A stretch of DNA of 59,605 nt, from contig JBAZNP010000001.1 in NCBI GenBank assembly GCA_041649155.1, forward strand, positions 739,183 to 798,787, given 5' to 3'. Position 1 is the stretch's first letter, and each line of letters opens with the position of its first letter. The notes below the pieces were generated by a model. It did no database searches. It saw nothing but the letters and a program-made list of their open reading frames with translations, and was not told where the DNA came from. This DNA comes from Patescibacteria group bacterium (GTDB lineage Bacteria; Patescibacteriota; UBA1384; XYA2-FULL-43-10; 1-14-0-10-43-13). This document shows, piece after piece, positions 28,235 to 35,938 of the stretch. The translations under genes and the position numbers were made by a program.

Positions 28235-29398
28235 ATGCAATTGTCTGAAAAGGTTAGCAAAGAAATCAAAAATTATATAATGAATCTTCTCGGCAGAGAT
28301 GCTTTTGTTATAGGCATGGATGGAATATGTTTAGCTTCTCCTGATCCTAATCAAATAGGATCTAAAATTGAATTACAAAAAGATGCTTTTAAAGCAACTG
28401 ATGTGAGAGCTGTTGAAGTAAATAAACGTCAACAAGTTCTAATTCCTCTTGAATATCAAAAAGAAACTATCGCCTTACTTCTATTAAATGAGAAACTAGA
28501 AAAACTCAATAGCTATATTTCTTTAGTCAAGAGTTTCGCTGAGCTATTAATCCAGCAATATTATGAAAACAATAAACCAATATTTGATACTACTGACCAA
28601 TTTATTACAAAACTAGTAAATAATGCCTCAAGACATGATTGGCCTTTGTATGAGTCTGAAGCGAAAGTTCTAGGTTATGATCTAAGTGCAAAACGTGTTG
28701 CTATTGTAATTCATCTAGATGGTTTCTGGGAAAAGTGTCTTTTGTCTATCGATCAACCTAGTTTTGAACGCGACGAAGTAATAAAAAATGCCAAAAGAAG
28801 TATAGAGAATACTATTAATGGTTTCTTTTCCAGGAACAATGATGTGATAATTGCCTATTTGGGAAGTGATAAGTTCGCTGTATTTAAGGCGGTTAGCGAT
28901 CAAGATCAAGCCAATATTGTCAAATTTTTAAAAAAGTCCTACAAATCTATTTTTGAGCCGCTAAAAAATTATCGCATAAATAGCATTGCTGTCGGCTTTG
29001 GAGAAGCTTACAGCGGAATTGAGGGGCTTGTGACGGGATTTAGAGAGGCAGACTTATCACTAGAGCTCGGTCAGAAGCTTTGGGGAAAAGATAAAGGCTA
29101 TTATTTTGGTGATTTGGGGATTCTTACTATTTTAGGAGAAGGAAATAGAGAAAAAAATGTTCAGTTTGCAAATCAAATGTTAGATTGTATGCATAATAAA
29201 GATTTAAATGAAACATTAGAATGTTTCTTTGATCAAAATCTAAATTTGACTGAAACTGCCGAAGAACTTGGAGTGCATCGAAATACTATAATTTATAGAT
29301 TAAACCAGATATCAAAAATTCTTGGTGCAGATCCTAGAGTATTTGATCAGGCAATGACGATAAAAATAGCTCTCCTGATAAGAAGACTCTTTGCGTAA
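28235..29398 (+). CDS. CdaR/PucR family transcriptional regulator
   Basis: N-terminal sensor-like domain, C-terminal NLNLTETAEELGVHRNTIIYRL HTH. Confidence 0.88.
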   Translation: MQLSEKVSKEIKNYIMNLLGRDAFVIGMDGICLASPDPNQIGSKIELQKDAFKATDVRAVEVNKRQQVLIPLEYQKETIALLLLNEKLEKLNSYISLVKSFAELLIQQYYENNKPIFDTTDQFITKLVNNASRHDWPLYESEAKVLGYDLSAKRVAIVIHLDGFWEKCLLSIDQPSFERDEVIKNAKRSIENTINGFFSRNNDVIIAYLGSDKFAVFKAVSDQDQANIVKFLKKSYKSIFEPLKNYRINSIAVGFGEAYSGIEGLVTGFREADLSLELGQKLWGKDKGYYFGDLGILTILGEGNREKNVQFANQMLDCMHNKDLNETLECFFDQNLNLTETAEELGVHRNTIIYRLNQISKILGADPRVFDQAMTIKIALLIRRLFA

Positions 29399-29532
29399 AT
29401 AAAAGACATATCGTGTCTCGTTCCTGATTTTTTGGAGGCTATTTCACTTTTTTATCAGTCTTAGTTAGGCGTCGAGCCTAGACGGATGCGCTGATTAATT
29501 TAACAATCATATTCTGCGATAAAAATTACCAT

Positions 29533-29569
29533 AAAAAATAAGCCAAAATTAATCATTGGCTTATTTTTT
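29533..29569. terminator. Bidirectional terminator
   Basis: AAAAAATAAGCCAA / TTGGCTTATTTTTT. Confidence 0.7.
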
Positions 29570-29576
29570 AATCAGG

Positions 29577-29981: not shown

Positions 29982-32900
29982 TTAATTTGCTAATGGTAAC
30001 AATATTGAGATACTCGAACCTTTGCCTAATCTACTTGTAACTTGTACTTTGCCGCCTTGTTTTTCTATTAAGTTTTTTACAATAAACAGACCAAGCCCTG
30101 TGCCTCCTGCTTTAATACTTTCTGAATTTTGCACTCTATAGAATTTGTTAAAGATTGCAGCTTGATCTTTTTTGGGAATTCCAACTCCGGTATCTTCTAC
30201 TACTATTCCCCCAAGGTTTTTTAATCTCTCGTTCCTTAATATTATATCGCCGCTTAATGTGTATTTTATGGCATTATCTACAAGATTTGATAATGCTTGT
30301 TTTGTCTTATCGTAATCTCCAATAAGTTTAATATTTTTAGATGCGACAGCTATTTTTAAATTAATGTTTTTGTCTGCCGCCTTTTGTTCAAAGTCAGCAA
30401 TAACATCTTTCATTAAATTGGTTGAGCTGAATGGAATTTTATCAAATACTGTTTTGTTCTCCTCTATCCTAGCGGTTTTAAGTAGATCTTCCACAAGAAT
30501 GACTAATTTATCAGTTGCTTGGTAGACTTTGTCAAAATATAACTTTTGTCTCGGATTAATTTCTCCTGCATCTCCACTTAAAATCATTGAGAGGTAGCCT
30601 TTAATAGCTGTAATCGGAGTTCTAAGCTCGTGAGTAGTAGTGTATATAAATTCTTTATTTCGATCTTCCATGGTTTTCTCTTTCGAAATATCTCTTATTA
30701 TTGCAATCACATAATCAAAATCATCTTCTTTAAAAATAAATGAAAGTGTGATTCCCAACCATTGTTCTTGCTGGTCTGAATTAAAGCTTCTAACTTCACG
30801 ATAAACTGTTCTGGTTTTATTTTCTAAAATATCTTTTTTTATTTTTTTATATTTTAGGACTATATCTGTATTATTTCTTAAAAAAATATCAGATGATTCG
30901 AAACCGGTAATTAGCTCCATTGCCTTATTCCAAACCATTATTTTATCTTTTGAGTCAAATACAATAATTCCGTCGCCAGAGTTATCTATAATGTTTTTCA
31001 GCTGTTGTTCATCTTGTCTGATCTGTTTAAAAAGCTTAGCCGTATCCATTCTTGAGGCTATTCTTTCTGCAATAATACTAAGCCATTTTATATCTCTGCT
31101 ATTATATTTTTTTTCTTTATTGATTGCGTATAAAAATCCAATAGTTTCATTATTTAGTTTGATCGGAGTTAAGATTATTCTGGAAATATTATTTATATTA
31201 TCAAAGTTATTTTTTGCATCGTTACATATAAATTCATCTTTAAAATTCTTTCTTTCCATTATTTGTGCAATTAAACTCGGTATTTCGGAATTTTCGTTTT
31301 TAACCAAGCCGATTTTATCGTCTTTCGGATTTAAAAAATAAAGATCTGCTACTTTCGAATCTAATATGGTAGCGGTTTTCTTTAGTACATTGCTATAAAA
31401 ATTTGGAGAGCTTATAGAGAGCGAGGATATCCTAAACAATCCGGTTAACTGTTCAATTTGTTTTTTAACTGTTTCCTGTTTTTTTACTAATTTTGTTGTA
31501 TCAGAAAAACCTATAAGGACACTATTGCATCGATTATTTTTTTCAATTACAGGATTAAATTGACATTTAATTCTGTCTCCTGTTCTTTTTTTTGAAACGA
31601 ATTCCATGTTATATGTTTTCTTATTTTTAATAGACTTTTGAATCGTTATCTGCATATTTTTCGAATTTGCTTCATTTAATTCTGAGAGATAATGGTTAAT
31701 ACTTTTATTCTCTAAATCATTCTTTTTCAAAGGAAGTAATTTTATTGCTGCTTCGTTTGTGAATATAAGATTGAAATTTCTATCTACCATGATCAACCCA
31801 TCAGTTGTGGTCTCTAACACTTTTTCGAATGTTTCCCTTTCATTGTCTAGTTGTTGGTATAGTTTTTCATATTCCATTGCCTGAGCTATCCTGTTGGCGA
31901 CTATTGATGCTGTTTTAGTTTCGTCCTCAGAAAAAAAATGATTTTTTGATTTTGTCAGATTTAATACACCCCGTAATTTATTATTATAAATCACAGGTAT
32001 TGAGAGTAGCGATCTTGCTTTGTGATGCGAAAAGGGAATAAAAAGAGGGTCTTTTTCTGTATTTGGAATCGCTAGGATTGTTTTATTTTGTGCAACATAT
32101 CCAGCAGCCCCTGTTCCTATTTTTAAACTCAAGGGCTTGTGCTTAGGGTCGTCATTATCGCTGTAACTAAAAATTACTTTTAAACAATTACTTTTAGGCA
32201 CCATTAAACTAGCTCCTATGATATCCATGCCTATAAACATCTGCTTCAGCATCGTTTTGATTATGTTCGTATGATTTGACTCCGAACTTAAGGCTAAGGA
32301 TGTCTGGTAGCTTAAAACGTTATGTGCTTCTTGACGTCGTTCTTTGGTGATGTCCTTAACAACAAGGGTGGAACCACATATTTTACCATTGTTGATCAGC
32401 GGGTTTGCAATTATGTTAAATGATTGATTTTGGTTTTTAATAATATTCGAGATTGTATATTCTTCTGATATTGCTCGTGAAGAAATCTCCGACAGAGATT
32501 TTATGAATTTGTCATACTTCTTATTGTTAGCTCTTTTTAGAGTTGACAACATCTTTTCTGCGGTGTTGTTTGTAAAGGTGGGGTTATTCTTTTTGTCGAA
32601 TGTGATGATGGAAAATGGGATAGTATCTATAATAGAGCTTTCTGGCAGTCTGGTAGTTCTGTTAATATCGGCGTGGATTATTGGATTTTCATTTTTTTCA
32701 AAAAAATTAATTCTAGACAATATAATTTTTGCATTAGAGATTAAATCAACATCTTTTAATCCATCTTTTTTTTGCCAGACTAGGCTAGCTTGACTAGTTC
32801 CAATAAAATTAAAATCTTTAATTTTGCATCTAAAAATATAGCACTCGTGAAGTTCTGCTCCATATCGACAAGGATCAATGAGTGTTTGATGAAGAATTAG

Positions 32901-33233
32901 TTTCTTGCTTTTTAAATCCAATCCAACTTTGTCTACGAACAACCTGCTCAGTGCTTCTTCAACTGATTCTTCATAATGCAGATGTGTTGTCGGTATACCA
33001 AATCCATATGGAAATTTTTGTCTTTTAATTAGTAAAATATTATCTTTTTTTTCAATTATTGCACCAATCGTTACGTGTTTTATCAGCCCATTCTCTTTTG
33101 TTGAGTAATTTTGTCCATCGTTATCAATTACGCGCGTATTTTTTTCTCCACAGTTGGAACAATAATAAAATATGTGGTTTTTCTCCACAACAGTCGAAAC
33201 ATTTTCACTTAGGCAGTTGATGCATTGCTTCAT
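29982..33233 (-). CDS. Soluble sensor histidine kinase: Zn-ribbon, Nudix-like, PAS/GAF repeats, HisKA/HATPase
   Basis: CxxC/CxxC N-terminus; THELRTPITAIKG, NLVDNAIKYT, DTGVGIP, GGTGLGL; GAF-like GTGAAGYVAQ; no TM. Confidence 0.9.
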   Translation of the reverse strand: MKQCINCLSENVSTVVEKNHIFYYCSNCGEKNTRVIDNDGQNYSTKENGLIKHVTIGAIIEKKDNILLIKRQKFPYGFGIPTTHLHYEESVEEALSRLFVDKVGLDLKSKKLILHQTLIDPCRYGAELHECYIFRCKIKDFNFIGTSQASLVWQKKDGLKDVDLISNAKIILSRINFFEKNENPIIHADINRTTRLPESSIIDTIPFSIITFDKKNNPTFTNNTAEKMLSTLKRANNKKYDKFIKSLSEISSRAISEEYTISNIIKNQNQSFNIIANPLINNGKICGSTLVVKDITKERRQEAHNVLSYQTSLALSSESNHTNIIKTMLKQMFIGMDIIGASLMVPKSNCLKVIFSYSDNDDPKHKPLSLKIGTGAAGYVAQNKTILAIPNTEKDPLFIPFSHHKARSLLSIPVIYNNKLRGVLNLTKSKNHFFSEDETKTASIVANRIAQAMEYEKLYQQLDNERETFEKVLETTTDGLIMVDRNFNLIFTNEAAIKLLPLKKNDLENKSINHYLSELNEANSKNMQITIQKSIKNKKTYNMEFVSKKRTGDRIKCQFNPVIEKNNRCNSVLIGFSDTTKLVKKQETVKKQIEQLTGLFRISSLSISSPNFYSNVLKKTATILDSKVADLYFLNPKDDKIGLVKNENSEIPSLIAQIMERKNFKDEFICNDAKNNFDNINNISRIILTPIKLNNETIGFLYAINKEKKYNSRDIKWLSIIAERIASRMDTAKLFKQIRQDEQQLKNIIDNSGDGIIVFDSKDKIMVWNKAMELITGFESSDIFLRNNTDIVLKYKKIKKDILENKTRTVYREVRSFNSDQQEQWLGITLSFIFKEDDFDYVIAIIRDISKEKTMEDRNKEFIYTTTHELRTPITAIKGYLSMILSGDAGEINPRQKLYFDKVYQATDKLVILVEDLLKTARIEENKTVFDKIPFSSTNLMKDVIADFEQKAADKNINLKIAVASKNIKLIGDYDKTKQALSNLVDNAIKYTLSGDIILRNERLKNLGGIVVEDTGVGIPKKDQAAIFNKFYRVQNSESIKAGGTGLGLFIVKNLIEKQGGKVQVTSRLGKGSSISILLPLAN

Positions 33234-34185: not shown

Positions 34186-34633
34186 TTTACTTCCCTCCTT
34201 CTTTGCGAGATATCTTTCATATCACGGTCGTCACTTTTTCTCCAGTATTTTGAAACCACTGTTAGGATACAAGGATCGGTTTAAGATTTTTATATGTTTT
34301 TTAATAATAAACTCGTTTTTTTGGCCCTTTTTTTGTGATTTATTACAAAAAAAGGGCCAAAAAGCTCGTTTTTAAATTGAAAAAATATTTAATTTAGATA
34401 CTTCTACAAATTTCAGCCATTGTGATTTATTATAAAAAATGTTTGATTTTAAGCTCAACCTTATTGACAAAAAATACAAAATGTTATTAAAGAAATCACC
34501 AGTTCATGACTGAAAATAGCACTGTTTGGTTGCCAAAATGCCTTGACATACTTTTGGCTAGACCTTAAGATTGATCGGTTTTATTAGAACCAAGCCCAAG
34601 ATGGCTTTTAAAAGTTAGGATTTCATACAAATT

Positions 34634-35938
34634 ATGAACAAAAAGGATATTGAGAATTATCTCAAAGAGACATTATTATTAGCTAAAAAAAATAAAAATA
34701 AATATGAAAAGAAATTAAGAAAAATTATATACTTGCATCAAAATAAAATTCCTGCACTCGCAGCTATTTGTTTGTTAACAGGTGTTTTATTGGTGGCGGG
34801 TATAATAAAAAGTCCGGTTAGATCTTTAAGTGTGGCTAAATTAAACCAGTCGATAAATACTTCATTGTCTTCTGACGCTCCGGATTTAAATAATTTAAAT
34901 TTTAAAAATATCGAAAAATTCGAAGTTCCAAATGCAAAGGCAACAGTAATATACATACCTCAGCTGCATAAGGAGCCAACTTCAAATGCTTCCGATAAAA
35001 CGAACGATCAGGCAACGACAGTTCAGAAAGAGATTTCGGGCATGTTGAAAACATTGGTTGACGACAACCATGTCAAATATGTAATGGACGAAACCGATCT
35101 TTATGGGTCAATGCCTGCTGATAAGGTTGAAAAAATTAAAGCTGGTTTTTCGGAGATTGAAGGAATTAGGTCGGATATAAAAACGATTATCGAACATTAT
35201 TTGAAGGATGGCGGTTCTACTGAAACTGCGGATGCTGTTCAAAAAAGCGTGGACGAAAAGCTTGATGGTTATGAACGAAACATATATCTAACTGGTGGCG
35301 CGGCTGTGTTAGCAGCTCAAGATGATGATGCACATGTATATGGTTCACAAAATGCAGATACCATTAATGAAGCAAAGGTAGAATTACAAAACCTCGTTTA
35401 CATGGAAGCAAGAATAAAAGAGCTCGAAGCTCAAAATGGTTCGGGATCGATCGGAACAACATCGACTTCAAGCAGTAGCCAGTCATCGGCTGCAAGTATC
35501 TTGTCTGCGTTGGGAAGTAGTAGTAAAAGTAACGGAAGTTCTTTGCAACCTATTATAAATTTTGCGAAGAAAAATAACGATACAGAATTAATCGAGGAAA
35601 TTAGTAAGATTACTAGTGCCTCTAAAGCTTTTACATCTAGCAGAAGTTATGAAACAACTTCAGCCACATCTACAACGACGGCTCCGGTAAATGTTTATAA
35701 GAATGTTACTGATTTGGAAGGATTAAAGGAAGAGTATCAGACTGCCTATAATAAGTTCATGAAGTTAGCCAAAGACCAAAGAAGTCAAGAGGTCGCTGAT
35801 AACATTGATAAAATGATGGAAGAAAATGGCCAAAATACAAGCATCTTAGTGTTCGGTATGCAGCATAAGGATCAGCTAGTCACAGCTCTTAATAAGAAAA
35901 ATATTAACGTGATTGTAATTACTCCTGAGTCCGAATAG
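34634..35938 (+). CDS. Membrane-anchored protein, possible TraB/Tiki/ChaN-like fold
   Basis: TM near aa 40-58; PQLH, VMDE, QRS, FGMQH; Ser/Thr-rich insert; TTGACA-17-TAAGAT at 34543-34571. Confidence 0.7.
   Translation: MNKKDIENYLKETLLLAKKNKNKYEKKLRKIIYLHQNKIPALAAICLLTGVLLVAGIIKSPVRSLSVAKLNQSINTSLSSDAPDLNNLNFKNIEKFEVPNAKATVIYIPQLHKEPTSNASDKTNDQATTVQKEISGMLKTLVDDNHVKYVMDETDLYGSMPADKVEKIKAGFSEIEGIRSDIKTIIEHYLKDGGSTETADAVQKSVDEKLDGYERNIYLTGGAAVLAAQDDDAHVYGSQNADTINEAKVELQNLVYMEARIKELEAQNGSGSIGTTSTSSSSQSSAASILSALGSSSKSNGSSLQPIINFAKKNNDTELIEEISKITSASKAFTSSRSYETTSATSTTTAPVNVYKNVTDLEGLKEEYQTAYNKFMKLAKDQRSQEVADNIDKMMEENGQNTSILVFGMQHKDQLVTALNKKNINVIVITPESE

Follow-up and report, generated by a model that had tools for sequence, protein, structure and literature searches.

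Nudix domains in signalling proteins

Non-catalytic Nudix domains are the binding sites for ADP-ribose and arabinose in NrtR and BtAraR. Among described systems NrtR is the closest in function to the gene considered here, a histidine kinase gene located in a window of 59,605 nucleotides (the whole stretch of DNA that was analysed) from a Patescibacteria group bacterium (GenBank assembly GCA_041649155.1, contig JBAZNP010000001.1, positions 739,183 to 798,787 of the forward strand). The likeness lies in a Nudix fold with a degenerate box that serves as a non-catalytic small-molecule sensor, a role proposed below for the window protein, and that is joined to a signalling output. The NrtR output is a C-terminal winged helix in a one-component protein, whereas the output of the window protein is a PAS/GAF relay to HisKA and HATPase domains. 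Moreover, the Zn-ribbon and the His/His/Cys/His signature are features of the window family, no helix-turn-helix domain was found in the window protein with Pfam and the NtrR/NrtR model of NCBIfam gave no match. Two papers describe the NrtR family as Nudix-related transcription factors (PMC6800001; PMC4666351).

E. coli NudC (5iw4, 5iw5, 7e44, 1vk6) resembles the window protein in having a four-cysteine Zn-ribbon directly before its Nudix domain. However, NudC also has an extra N-terminal domain, an intact Nudix box and the motif SQPWPFPxS about 10 residues past the box, and the window module is without all three. The window sequence past the box is DLKSKKLILHQTLIDPCRYG, the identity between the window module and NudC is 15-18% and the NCBIfam model of NAD(+) diphosphatase does not match the window module. 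The same two-part module is found in free-standing Zn-ribbon-Nudix proteins of the 3cng type (PF14803 Zn_ribbon_Nudix plus NUDIX), which are about 180-200 amino acids (aa) long. These are stand-alone proteins with a canonical box that are presumed to be hydrolases, whereas the window module is fused to a kinase and has a degenerate box. Finally, mycobacterial MutT1, which has an N-terminal Nudix domain and a C-terminal SixA-like histidine phosphatase domain, has been linked to sensor histidine kinases (PMC12407098). No other functional connection between a Nudix protein and sensor kinases was found in the published literature. MutT1 dephosphorylates kinases in trans through its phosphatase domain, whereas the window protein has no such domain and the Nudix domain of its family is located in or beside the kinase.

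Of all parts of two-component signalling, the input domains of histidine kinases are understood least, and bacteria of the candidate phyla radiation have very few two-component systems. For instance, the genome that contains the window (0.99 Mb) has about five kinases and about five regulators. With so few kinases per genome, each of them likely monitors something central to an episymbiotic life on scavenged nucleotides. The window kinase is an otherwise ordinary-looking two-component kinase whose input module is unusual and evolutionarily informative. Sensing by this module would extend the use of the Nudix fold from one-component regulators such as NrtR to two-component kinases.

A Zn-ribbon and Nudix module at the N-terminus of the kinase

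The kinase is encoded by an open reading frame of 1083 aa on the minus strand (29982..33233), exactly at the coordinates given in a preliminary description of this DNA, which had proposed a cytoplasmic histidine kinase with an N-terminal Zn-ribbon and a degenerate Nudix domain. The sequence strings on which that proposal relied are all present: CINC (residues 4-7), CSNC (25-28), HVTIGAIIEKKDNILLIKRQKFPYGFGIP (53-81) and DPCRYG (120-125). Pfam NUDIX matches residues 52-139 with E=9.5e-5 and 22.9 bits against a gathering score of 21.1, a marginal match when taken alone. A phmmer search of the PDB with the single sequence gave weak matches (E=0.009-0.5), all of them to Nudix proteins, and a profile of 68 module homologues matched MutT, NudI, NudC and ADPRase in the PDB with E down to 2.9e-13, the NudC alignment beginning inside the Zn-ribbon. 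In the AlphaFold2 (AF2) model of residues 1-190 (mean pLDDT 92.2, pTM 0.85), a helix at 91-103 is located between strands. When this model was compared with the PDB by Foldseek, NudC was the top match (5iw5, 7e44 and 5iw4, 160-182 columns, E about 2e-8) and matches were also obtained with NudI (3oga, TM 0.81 normalised to the target, root-mean-square deviation 2.6 Å) and with the Zn-ribbon Nudix protein 3cng. The marginal Pfam score is therefore confirmed by phmmer, profile and structure-model comparisons, and the N-terminus has a Nudix fold, in agreement with the initial proposal.

The Zn-ribbon gave no significant match in Pfam (E=0.17). Despite this score the proposed ribbon holds, as its cysteines C4, C7, C25 and C28 are invariant or near-invariant across the 68 homologues, and as it forms a beta-ribbon in the AF2 model that aligns with the Zn-ribbons of NudC and 3cng.

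The box of the Nudix domain is degenerate. According to the PDB alignments it reads T83-x5-E89-x7-R97-L98-F-V-D101-K102-V-G104-L105, where the canonical box is G-x5-E-x7-R-E-U-x-E-E-x-G-U. The changes are G83T, E98L, E101D and E102K, and E89, R97 and G104 are retained. In the phmmer alignments, the solved structures show PGG..GE..RE..EE.G and the window protein PTT..EE..RL..DK.G. The preliminary description had stated that the RE..EE glutamates are lost, which is correct for E98 and E102, but its register was slightly off and E101 is replaced conservatively by aspartate. In MutT, the catalytic Mg/Mn is bound by E53, E56 and E57, and Nudix enzymes that lose these glutamates are normally inactive. 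The window protein does not have the helix glutamates of a competent Nudix hydrolase box and, since these metal-binding residues changed from RE..EE to RL..DK, its Nudix domain most likely no longer hydrolyses, as judged from the sequence. The domain still has H53, H84, the loop D-x-C122-x-x-G125, H129, E89 and R97. Catalysis would thus have been lost selectively with the rest of the Nudix domain kept, which is the pattern expected for an enzyme that became a binding domain.

Fused and split forms of the Nudix-kinase pair

In six genomes of the same class that belong to three other families (G021, G022, G116, G117, G118, G042), the module and the kinase are encoded by two genes. A Zn-ribbon-Nudix gene of 182-191 aa, with a canonical box in all six cases, is located directly upstream of an orthologous PAS/GAF-HisKA-HATPase kinase gene. 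With genes called as longest open reading frames, the two overlap by 4-8 nucleotides (nt) in four genomes and are 10 and 108 nt apart in the other two. The kinase gene is followed by a receiver-only response regulator of 125-143 aa and then, in five of the six loci, by a convergent PucR-type regulator. The split-pair kinases start at the equivalent of window residue 189, which is the boundary of the module; for instance, the kinase of locus L023 aligns from its residue 2 with this residue. The idea that the split genes are frameshift artefacts was ruled out, as they occur in six independent genomes of three families and the Nudix open reading frames end cleanly. It is also contradicted by the finding that the split forms make up clades of their own with canonical boxes.

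The presence of a free-standing Nudix gene beside an orthologous kinase gene indicates that the window protein is a gene fusion. Because the module is found free-standing far more widely than fused, a fusion is more parsimonious than a fission, and a formerly separate Nudix gene would have been joined to the downstream kinase gene. This split and fused pairing is the strongest evidence for functional coupling. It makes it very probable that Nudix module and kinase are functional partners whether fused or not (a Rosetta-stone relation), most likely as sensor and transmitter. The conserved pair of Nudix gene and kinase gene also implies an ancestral partner that probably had hydrolase activity.

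The state of the box differs among the fused kinases. It is intact (RE..EE) in P0013, P0015, P0018, P0023, P0025, P0031, P0036 and P0049, reads RK..EE in P0010, P0016, P0021, P0022, P0024 and P0038 and is further decayed in P0011, P0012, P0014, P0019 and P0020. The most decayed form, RLFxDK, is found in P0001-P0008, the clade of the window protein itself, throughout which the same replacements are fixed, and P0009 has RLFRNK. In a maximum-likelihood tree of 83 modules (midpoint-rooted only), 60 of which have a canonical box, the main fused clade comprises 24 modules (support 100/99) with intact, RK..EE and degraded boxes. The subclade P0001-P0009 (support 100/99) is nested at its tip. As all box states are found inside the fused clade and the window subclade is at the tip, decay came after fusion, proceeding stepwise in the aligned sequences from RE..EE over RK..EE to RL..DK, with the clade of the window as the most derived. 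A second small fused clade (P0025, P0036, P0038, P0049) is placed near the split-form genes; given the midpoint rooting, one or two fusion events are possible.

The locus therefore belongs to a natural enzyme-to-sensor series composed of a separate active-looking gene, a fused intact form, a fused RK..EE form and a fused dead form. Such a series makes both the conversion of an enzyme into a receptor and the metabolite that is reported directly testable.

Distribution of the module

An exhaustive HMMER search with residues 1-190 among 1.84 billion cluster representatives (E<=1e-3) gave 278 matches to the module. It is N-terminal in about 21 representative clusters (50% identity) of proteins of 725-1114 aa. 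The fused set used here (n=29) contains 28 distinct sequences in which the HisKA/HATPase core was confirmed and one fragment of 329 aa, and all fused-kinase members with a known source are metagenome-assembled genomes (MAGs) of Patescibacteria. The next group of matches is formed by free-standing proteins of 175-215 aa that match residues 3-175 with E from 7e-27 to 1e-8. These have a canonical box (G-H-x4-E-x7-R-E-x2-E-E-x-G) and match Pfam NUDIX with E from 1e-17 to 1e-20. None of the NCBIfam families matched them at its cut-off, the best partial matches (NudC, NudI, MutT, RppH) being far below.

Of 162 genomes from the class of the window genome, 15 contain the module, six of them with a kinase fused to it. 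In a sample of 401 genomes of the phylum, the matches outside the class are all free-standing open frames of 153-266 aa. A narrower module alignment retrieved one related locus among the GTDB species representatives, in a Patescibacteria MAG, and no matches came from a word-indexed search that used only the 190-aa module.

The preliminary description had presented the architecture as one that it did not recognise. It is not unique, as it recurs in the about 21 clusters, in many of them with an intact box. PF00293 is already among the Pfam entries precomputed for several homologues. In the published literature, no account of a histidine kinase fused to a Nudix domain, or of the gene pair, was found. 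The architecture is thus visible in databases but, as far as can be told, apparently not discussed in the literature. Since many fused relatives have an intact box, the notion of a dead Nudix sensor is restricted to the subclade of the window.

In addition, the module was observed at the C-terminus of six proteins of about 570-690 aa (P0037, P0115, P0117, P0134, P0142, P0145). Two of these were scanned, P0037 and P0115, and their N-terminal 450-500 residues are without a Pfam match. Judged by these sequences, the C-terminal module appears to be a third, uncharacterised architecture of the subfamily. The genus of the window bacterium is represented by just one more genome (G131, 89% complete), in which no Nudix module or fused kinase was found. 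A match to the PucR-like regulator of the locus was seen there in a 330-aa open frame (C28:2673-3569), over query residues 1-299 only.

Conservation of the domain and its His/His/Cys/His signature

Per-domain identity was compared between the window protein and ten orthologues (P0002-P0011). It ranges over 93-53% for the Zn-ribbon and 83-44% for the Nudix domain, against 87-62% for HisKA and 85-56% for HATPase. The values are 80-28% for the PAS-like segment A, 86-28% for the GAF-like segment B and 50-22% for the C-terminal PAS domain. The Zn-ribbon and Nudix domain are thus on par with HisKA and HATPase and above every PAS domain and GAF-B.

In 157 retrieved modules, H84 was found in 157, C122 in 154, H53 in 147 and H129 in 146. 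The catalytic positions 98, 101 and 102 are retained in 132, 142 and 137 of them, fewer than the signature residues. Four of the eight substitutions observed at H129 are to glutamate. In the same way, H53, H84, C122, G125 and H129 are present in 29/29 fused modules, in which E98 was found in 9, E101 in 20 and E102 in 16. H84 is the position after the first glycine of the box, which we take to be a substrate contact in MutT (K39) and NudC (F160), and C122 is 17 residues past the box, where other Nudix subfamilies presumably have their specificity motifs. In the alignments with three solved Nudix structures, none of these has the Cys/His part of the signature. The locus points to an uncharacterised Nudix subfamily with an invariant His/His/Cys/His signature.

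Residues 53, 84, 122 and 129 (window about 32845-33076, minus strand) of this Zn-ribbon-Nudix subfamily may make up either an additional metal site or a pocket that sets specificity.

Possible functions of the module

From the observed fold, box decay, fused and split forms, conservation and synteny, we infer ligand binding, loss of activity, relay and output. The Nudix module of the window is, with somewhat better than even probability, a non-catalytic ligand-binding input domain that reports the compound hydrolysed by its enzymatic relatives. The N-terminal 190-residue Zn-ribbon and Nudix module would have been gained by fusion with the neighbouring kinase gene, and the glutamates would have been lost later in the window lineage with the Nudix fold and the specificity signature retained. 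The module would bind a small molecule that the enzymatic relatives cleave, possibly of the nucleoside-diphosphate-X type. Its occupancy would be relayed via the PAS/GAF array to HisKA and HATPase, altering the autophosphorylation of H868 and the phosphotransfer to D56 of the adjacent receiver-only response regulator. Without an output domain of its own, this regulator would have to act through protein contact, for which the syntenic PucR-type transcription factor is a candidate partner. The sensory, non-catalytic role suggested in the preliminary description is the best interpretation, given that the domain, despite its lost glutamates, is conserved like the kinase core. The nucleotide or ADP-ribose ligand suggested there is not supported, since no specific Nudix subfamily was matched and the NudC specificity motif is absent. 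Guessing the ligand from homology was likewise rejected as unsupported, the NCBIfam hits of the free-standing relatives being all far below cut-offs.

Several observations weigh against a sensory domain of this kind. In the window protein E89 and R97 are kept, position 101 is still acidic (D101) and the domain has conserved histidines and a cysteine, so that residual or altered catalysis is conceivable. Judging from the sequences, the many fused relatives with a canonical box may mean that the common function of the family requires hydrolysis and that the window clade is an exception. In addition, the PucR-like gene is present in 27 genomes without the module and is linked to the cassette by synteny only. 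The Nudix domain might accordingly still be an enzyme that works through E89, D101, the conserved His/Cys residues and an altered use of metal, and whose turnover or product is read by the kinase. The canonical boxes of the split partners and of many fused relatives, which presumably perform enzyme-coupled sensing when RE..EE is intact, are in line with such an enzyme, and with stepwise decay intermediates such as RK..EE may keep activity. In the window protein, however, two of the three helix glutamates became leucine and lysine and the first glycine of the box became threonine. Loss of a metal-ligand glutamate is normally inactivating in Nudix enzymes, and the replacements are fixed in P0001-P0008, which makes a retained enzyme unlikely.

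The signature allows a different explanation, in which H53, H84, C122 and H129 form a putative second metal site of the His3Cys type and metal occupancy or cysteine oxidation is the signal. After the ribbon cysteines these four residues are the most invariant of the 157 modules, above the catalytic glutamates, and glutamate, to which half of the H129 substitutions lead, is another metal ligand. Their conservation is nevertheless just as high in relatives with the appearance of active enzymes, and the positions that we take to be a substrate contact (H84) and part of the specificity-motif region (C122) fit ligand contacts equally well, so a metal or redox sensor is considered improbable. The decay of the catalytic residues could also mean that the Nudix domain is a ligand-free structural relic that serves in dimerisation or as a scaffold only, with all input coming from the PAS and GAF domains, of which three secure and two weaker ones could provide it. 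This is very unlikely, as the conservation of the domain equals that of the kinase core and as H53, H84, C122, G125, H129, R97 and E89 are kept in 29/29 fused modules or nearly so, which would be unexpected for a scaffold.

Kinase core and neighbouring genes

The features of the locus are listed below.

Table 1. Features of the kinase locus in the window, with the evidence for each
Feature	Coordinates	Strand	Evidence or remarks
Whole kinase gene	29982..33233	-	Zn-ribbon, Nudix, PAS-like, GAF, PAS, GAF-like, PAS, HisKA, HATPase_c
Zn-ribbon, residues 1-45 (C4, C7, C25, C28)	33099..33233	-	Cys conservation, AF2 beta-ribbon, NudC/3cng alignment
Nudix-fold domain, residues 46-180, catalytically degenerate	32694..33098	-	Pfam, profile vs PDB, AF2, Foldseek
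Degenerate Nudix box, residues 83-105	32919..32987	-	T-x5-E-x7-R-L-F-V-D-K-V-G-L
Signature loop D120-P-C122-R-Y-G125-A-E-L-H129-E	32844..32874	-	Family conservation
PAS-like segment, residues 190-300	32334..32666	-	Weak: PAS_9 E=0.085 at ~213-298
GAF domain, residues 301-460	31854..32333	-	Pfam GAF_2 E=1e-16
PAS domain, residues 465-585	31479..31841	-	Pfam PAS_7 and PAS_4, 473-581
GAF-like segment, residues 590-735	31029..31466	-	Sub-threshold GAF_2 at ~620-735, E=3.7e-5, 24.4 bits, cut-off 28.6
PAS domain, residues 740-850	30684..31016	-	Pfam PAS 744-849, E=2.2e-18 for the protein
HisKA dimerisation/phospho-acceptor domain, residues 855-930, H868	30444..30671	-	Pfam 859-925, E=1.4e-14
HATPase_c, residues 965-1083 (N, G1, F, G2 boxes)	29985..30341	-	Pfam 972-1082, E=1.1e-25
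Cognate receiver-only response regulator, 128 aa	29577..29963	-	Response_reg E=9.5e-22
Convergent PucR/CdaR-type regulator (Diacid_rec, GGDEF_2, HTH_30)	28235..29398	+	Pfam, synteny
Divergent guanylate-kinase-like P-loop gene, 283 aa	33334..34185	-	Upstream of kinase; profile and model

The preliminary description had seen alternating PAS-like and GAF-like segments followed by an intact HisKA/HATPase and no transmembrane (TM) segment. The alternation stands in part: GAF at 301-460 and PAS at 473-581 and 744-850 are secure, but the regions ~213-298 and ~620-735 are only PAS-like and GAF-like. The catalytic core is indeed intact, with H868 in HELRTP, N987, DTGVG, FNKF and GTGLGL, all of them invariant across 11 orthologues, as in class I HisKA-type kinases. 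TM segments are absent as stated, the highest Kyte-Doolittle mean over 19 residues being 1.28. The core (PAS-HisKA-HATPase_c) is similar to that of PnpS/WalK/PhoR-type kinases, from which the window kinase differs by having no TM helices and a different N-terminal input. Against NCBIfam it scores 288 bits for PnpS, 239 for WalK and 233 for PhoR, far under the respective cut-offs of 400, 725 and 334.2, so that none of the named kinases is its orthologue.

A receiver-only regulator had also been noted directly downstream, and its gene indeed begins 18 nt after the kinase gene. Its residues E13/D14, D56, T85 and K110 are those of a two-component receiver, and the regulator adjoins the kinase in every homologous locus whose contig extends past the kinase.

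Just past its stop codon, a hairpin (AAATAAGCCAA...TTGGCTTATTTTTT) followed by a T-run was observed at 29530-29575 on the minus strand, which had been missed by the consensus scan. It is likely an intrinsic terminator that ends the kinase-response regulator operon.

The PucR-like regulator has an identity of 52-62% in other cassette genomes across families, which is unusually high, and wherever both are on one contig its gene is convergent with the cassette or within 4 kb of it (<=4 kb). It is present in 39 of the 162 class genomes, and the module-free genomes among them, mentioned above, ruled it out as a strictly cassette-specific component.

The guanylate-kinase (GK)-like protein has a P-loop and a stretch of the form S-x-R...E..G..PYR..S..D. 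No Pfam family matched it over its cut-off, and its 23 bits compare with cut-offs of 160 (TIGR03263) and 25.2 (PF00625), so it does not qualify as a guanylate kinase by these models. The best named matches of its profile in the PDB are guanylate kinases (E=1e-8). In parallel, its structure model, of moderate quality (pLDDT 67.9), matches guanylate, dephospho-CoA and UMP/CMP kinases, in keeping with an NMP-kinase-like fold. As a near-canonical gmk is present elsewhere in the genome (C1:179214-179747), the GK-like gene represents an additional paralogue. It was found in three of the 162 class genomes, always directly upstream of a Nudix-fused kinase, and only five other relatives (clusters) were found among 5.8 billion proteins. 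Since these three genomes all belong to the window's branch of fused kinases, a universal role in the cassette was ruled out, and the gene may belong to the cassette in the subclade of the window alone.

The cassette of GK-like gene, Nudix module (split or fused), kinase, response regulator and PucR gene could form a dedicated circuit for nucleotide signalling that only one class of Patescibacteria has, a speculative proposal that we regard as doubtful. The GK-like kinase would make, and the ancestral Nudix enzyme would destroy, a phosphorylated nucleotide whose level would be read by the dead Nudix domain, and contact between response regulator and PucR would control transcription. If this were the case, the family-wide His3Cys signature would be the hallmark of an uncharacterised Nudix subfamily that has a new substrate or a new metal requirement.

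A second hairpin, with a perfect 20-bp stem (TTTTTTGGCCCTTTTTTTGT...ACAAAAAAAGGGCCAAAAA), was observed at 34317-34364, between the GK-like gene (minus strand) and a divergent gene of 434 aa at 34634 (plus strand), an odd site for a terminator-like element.

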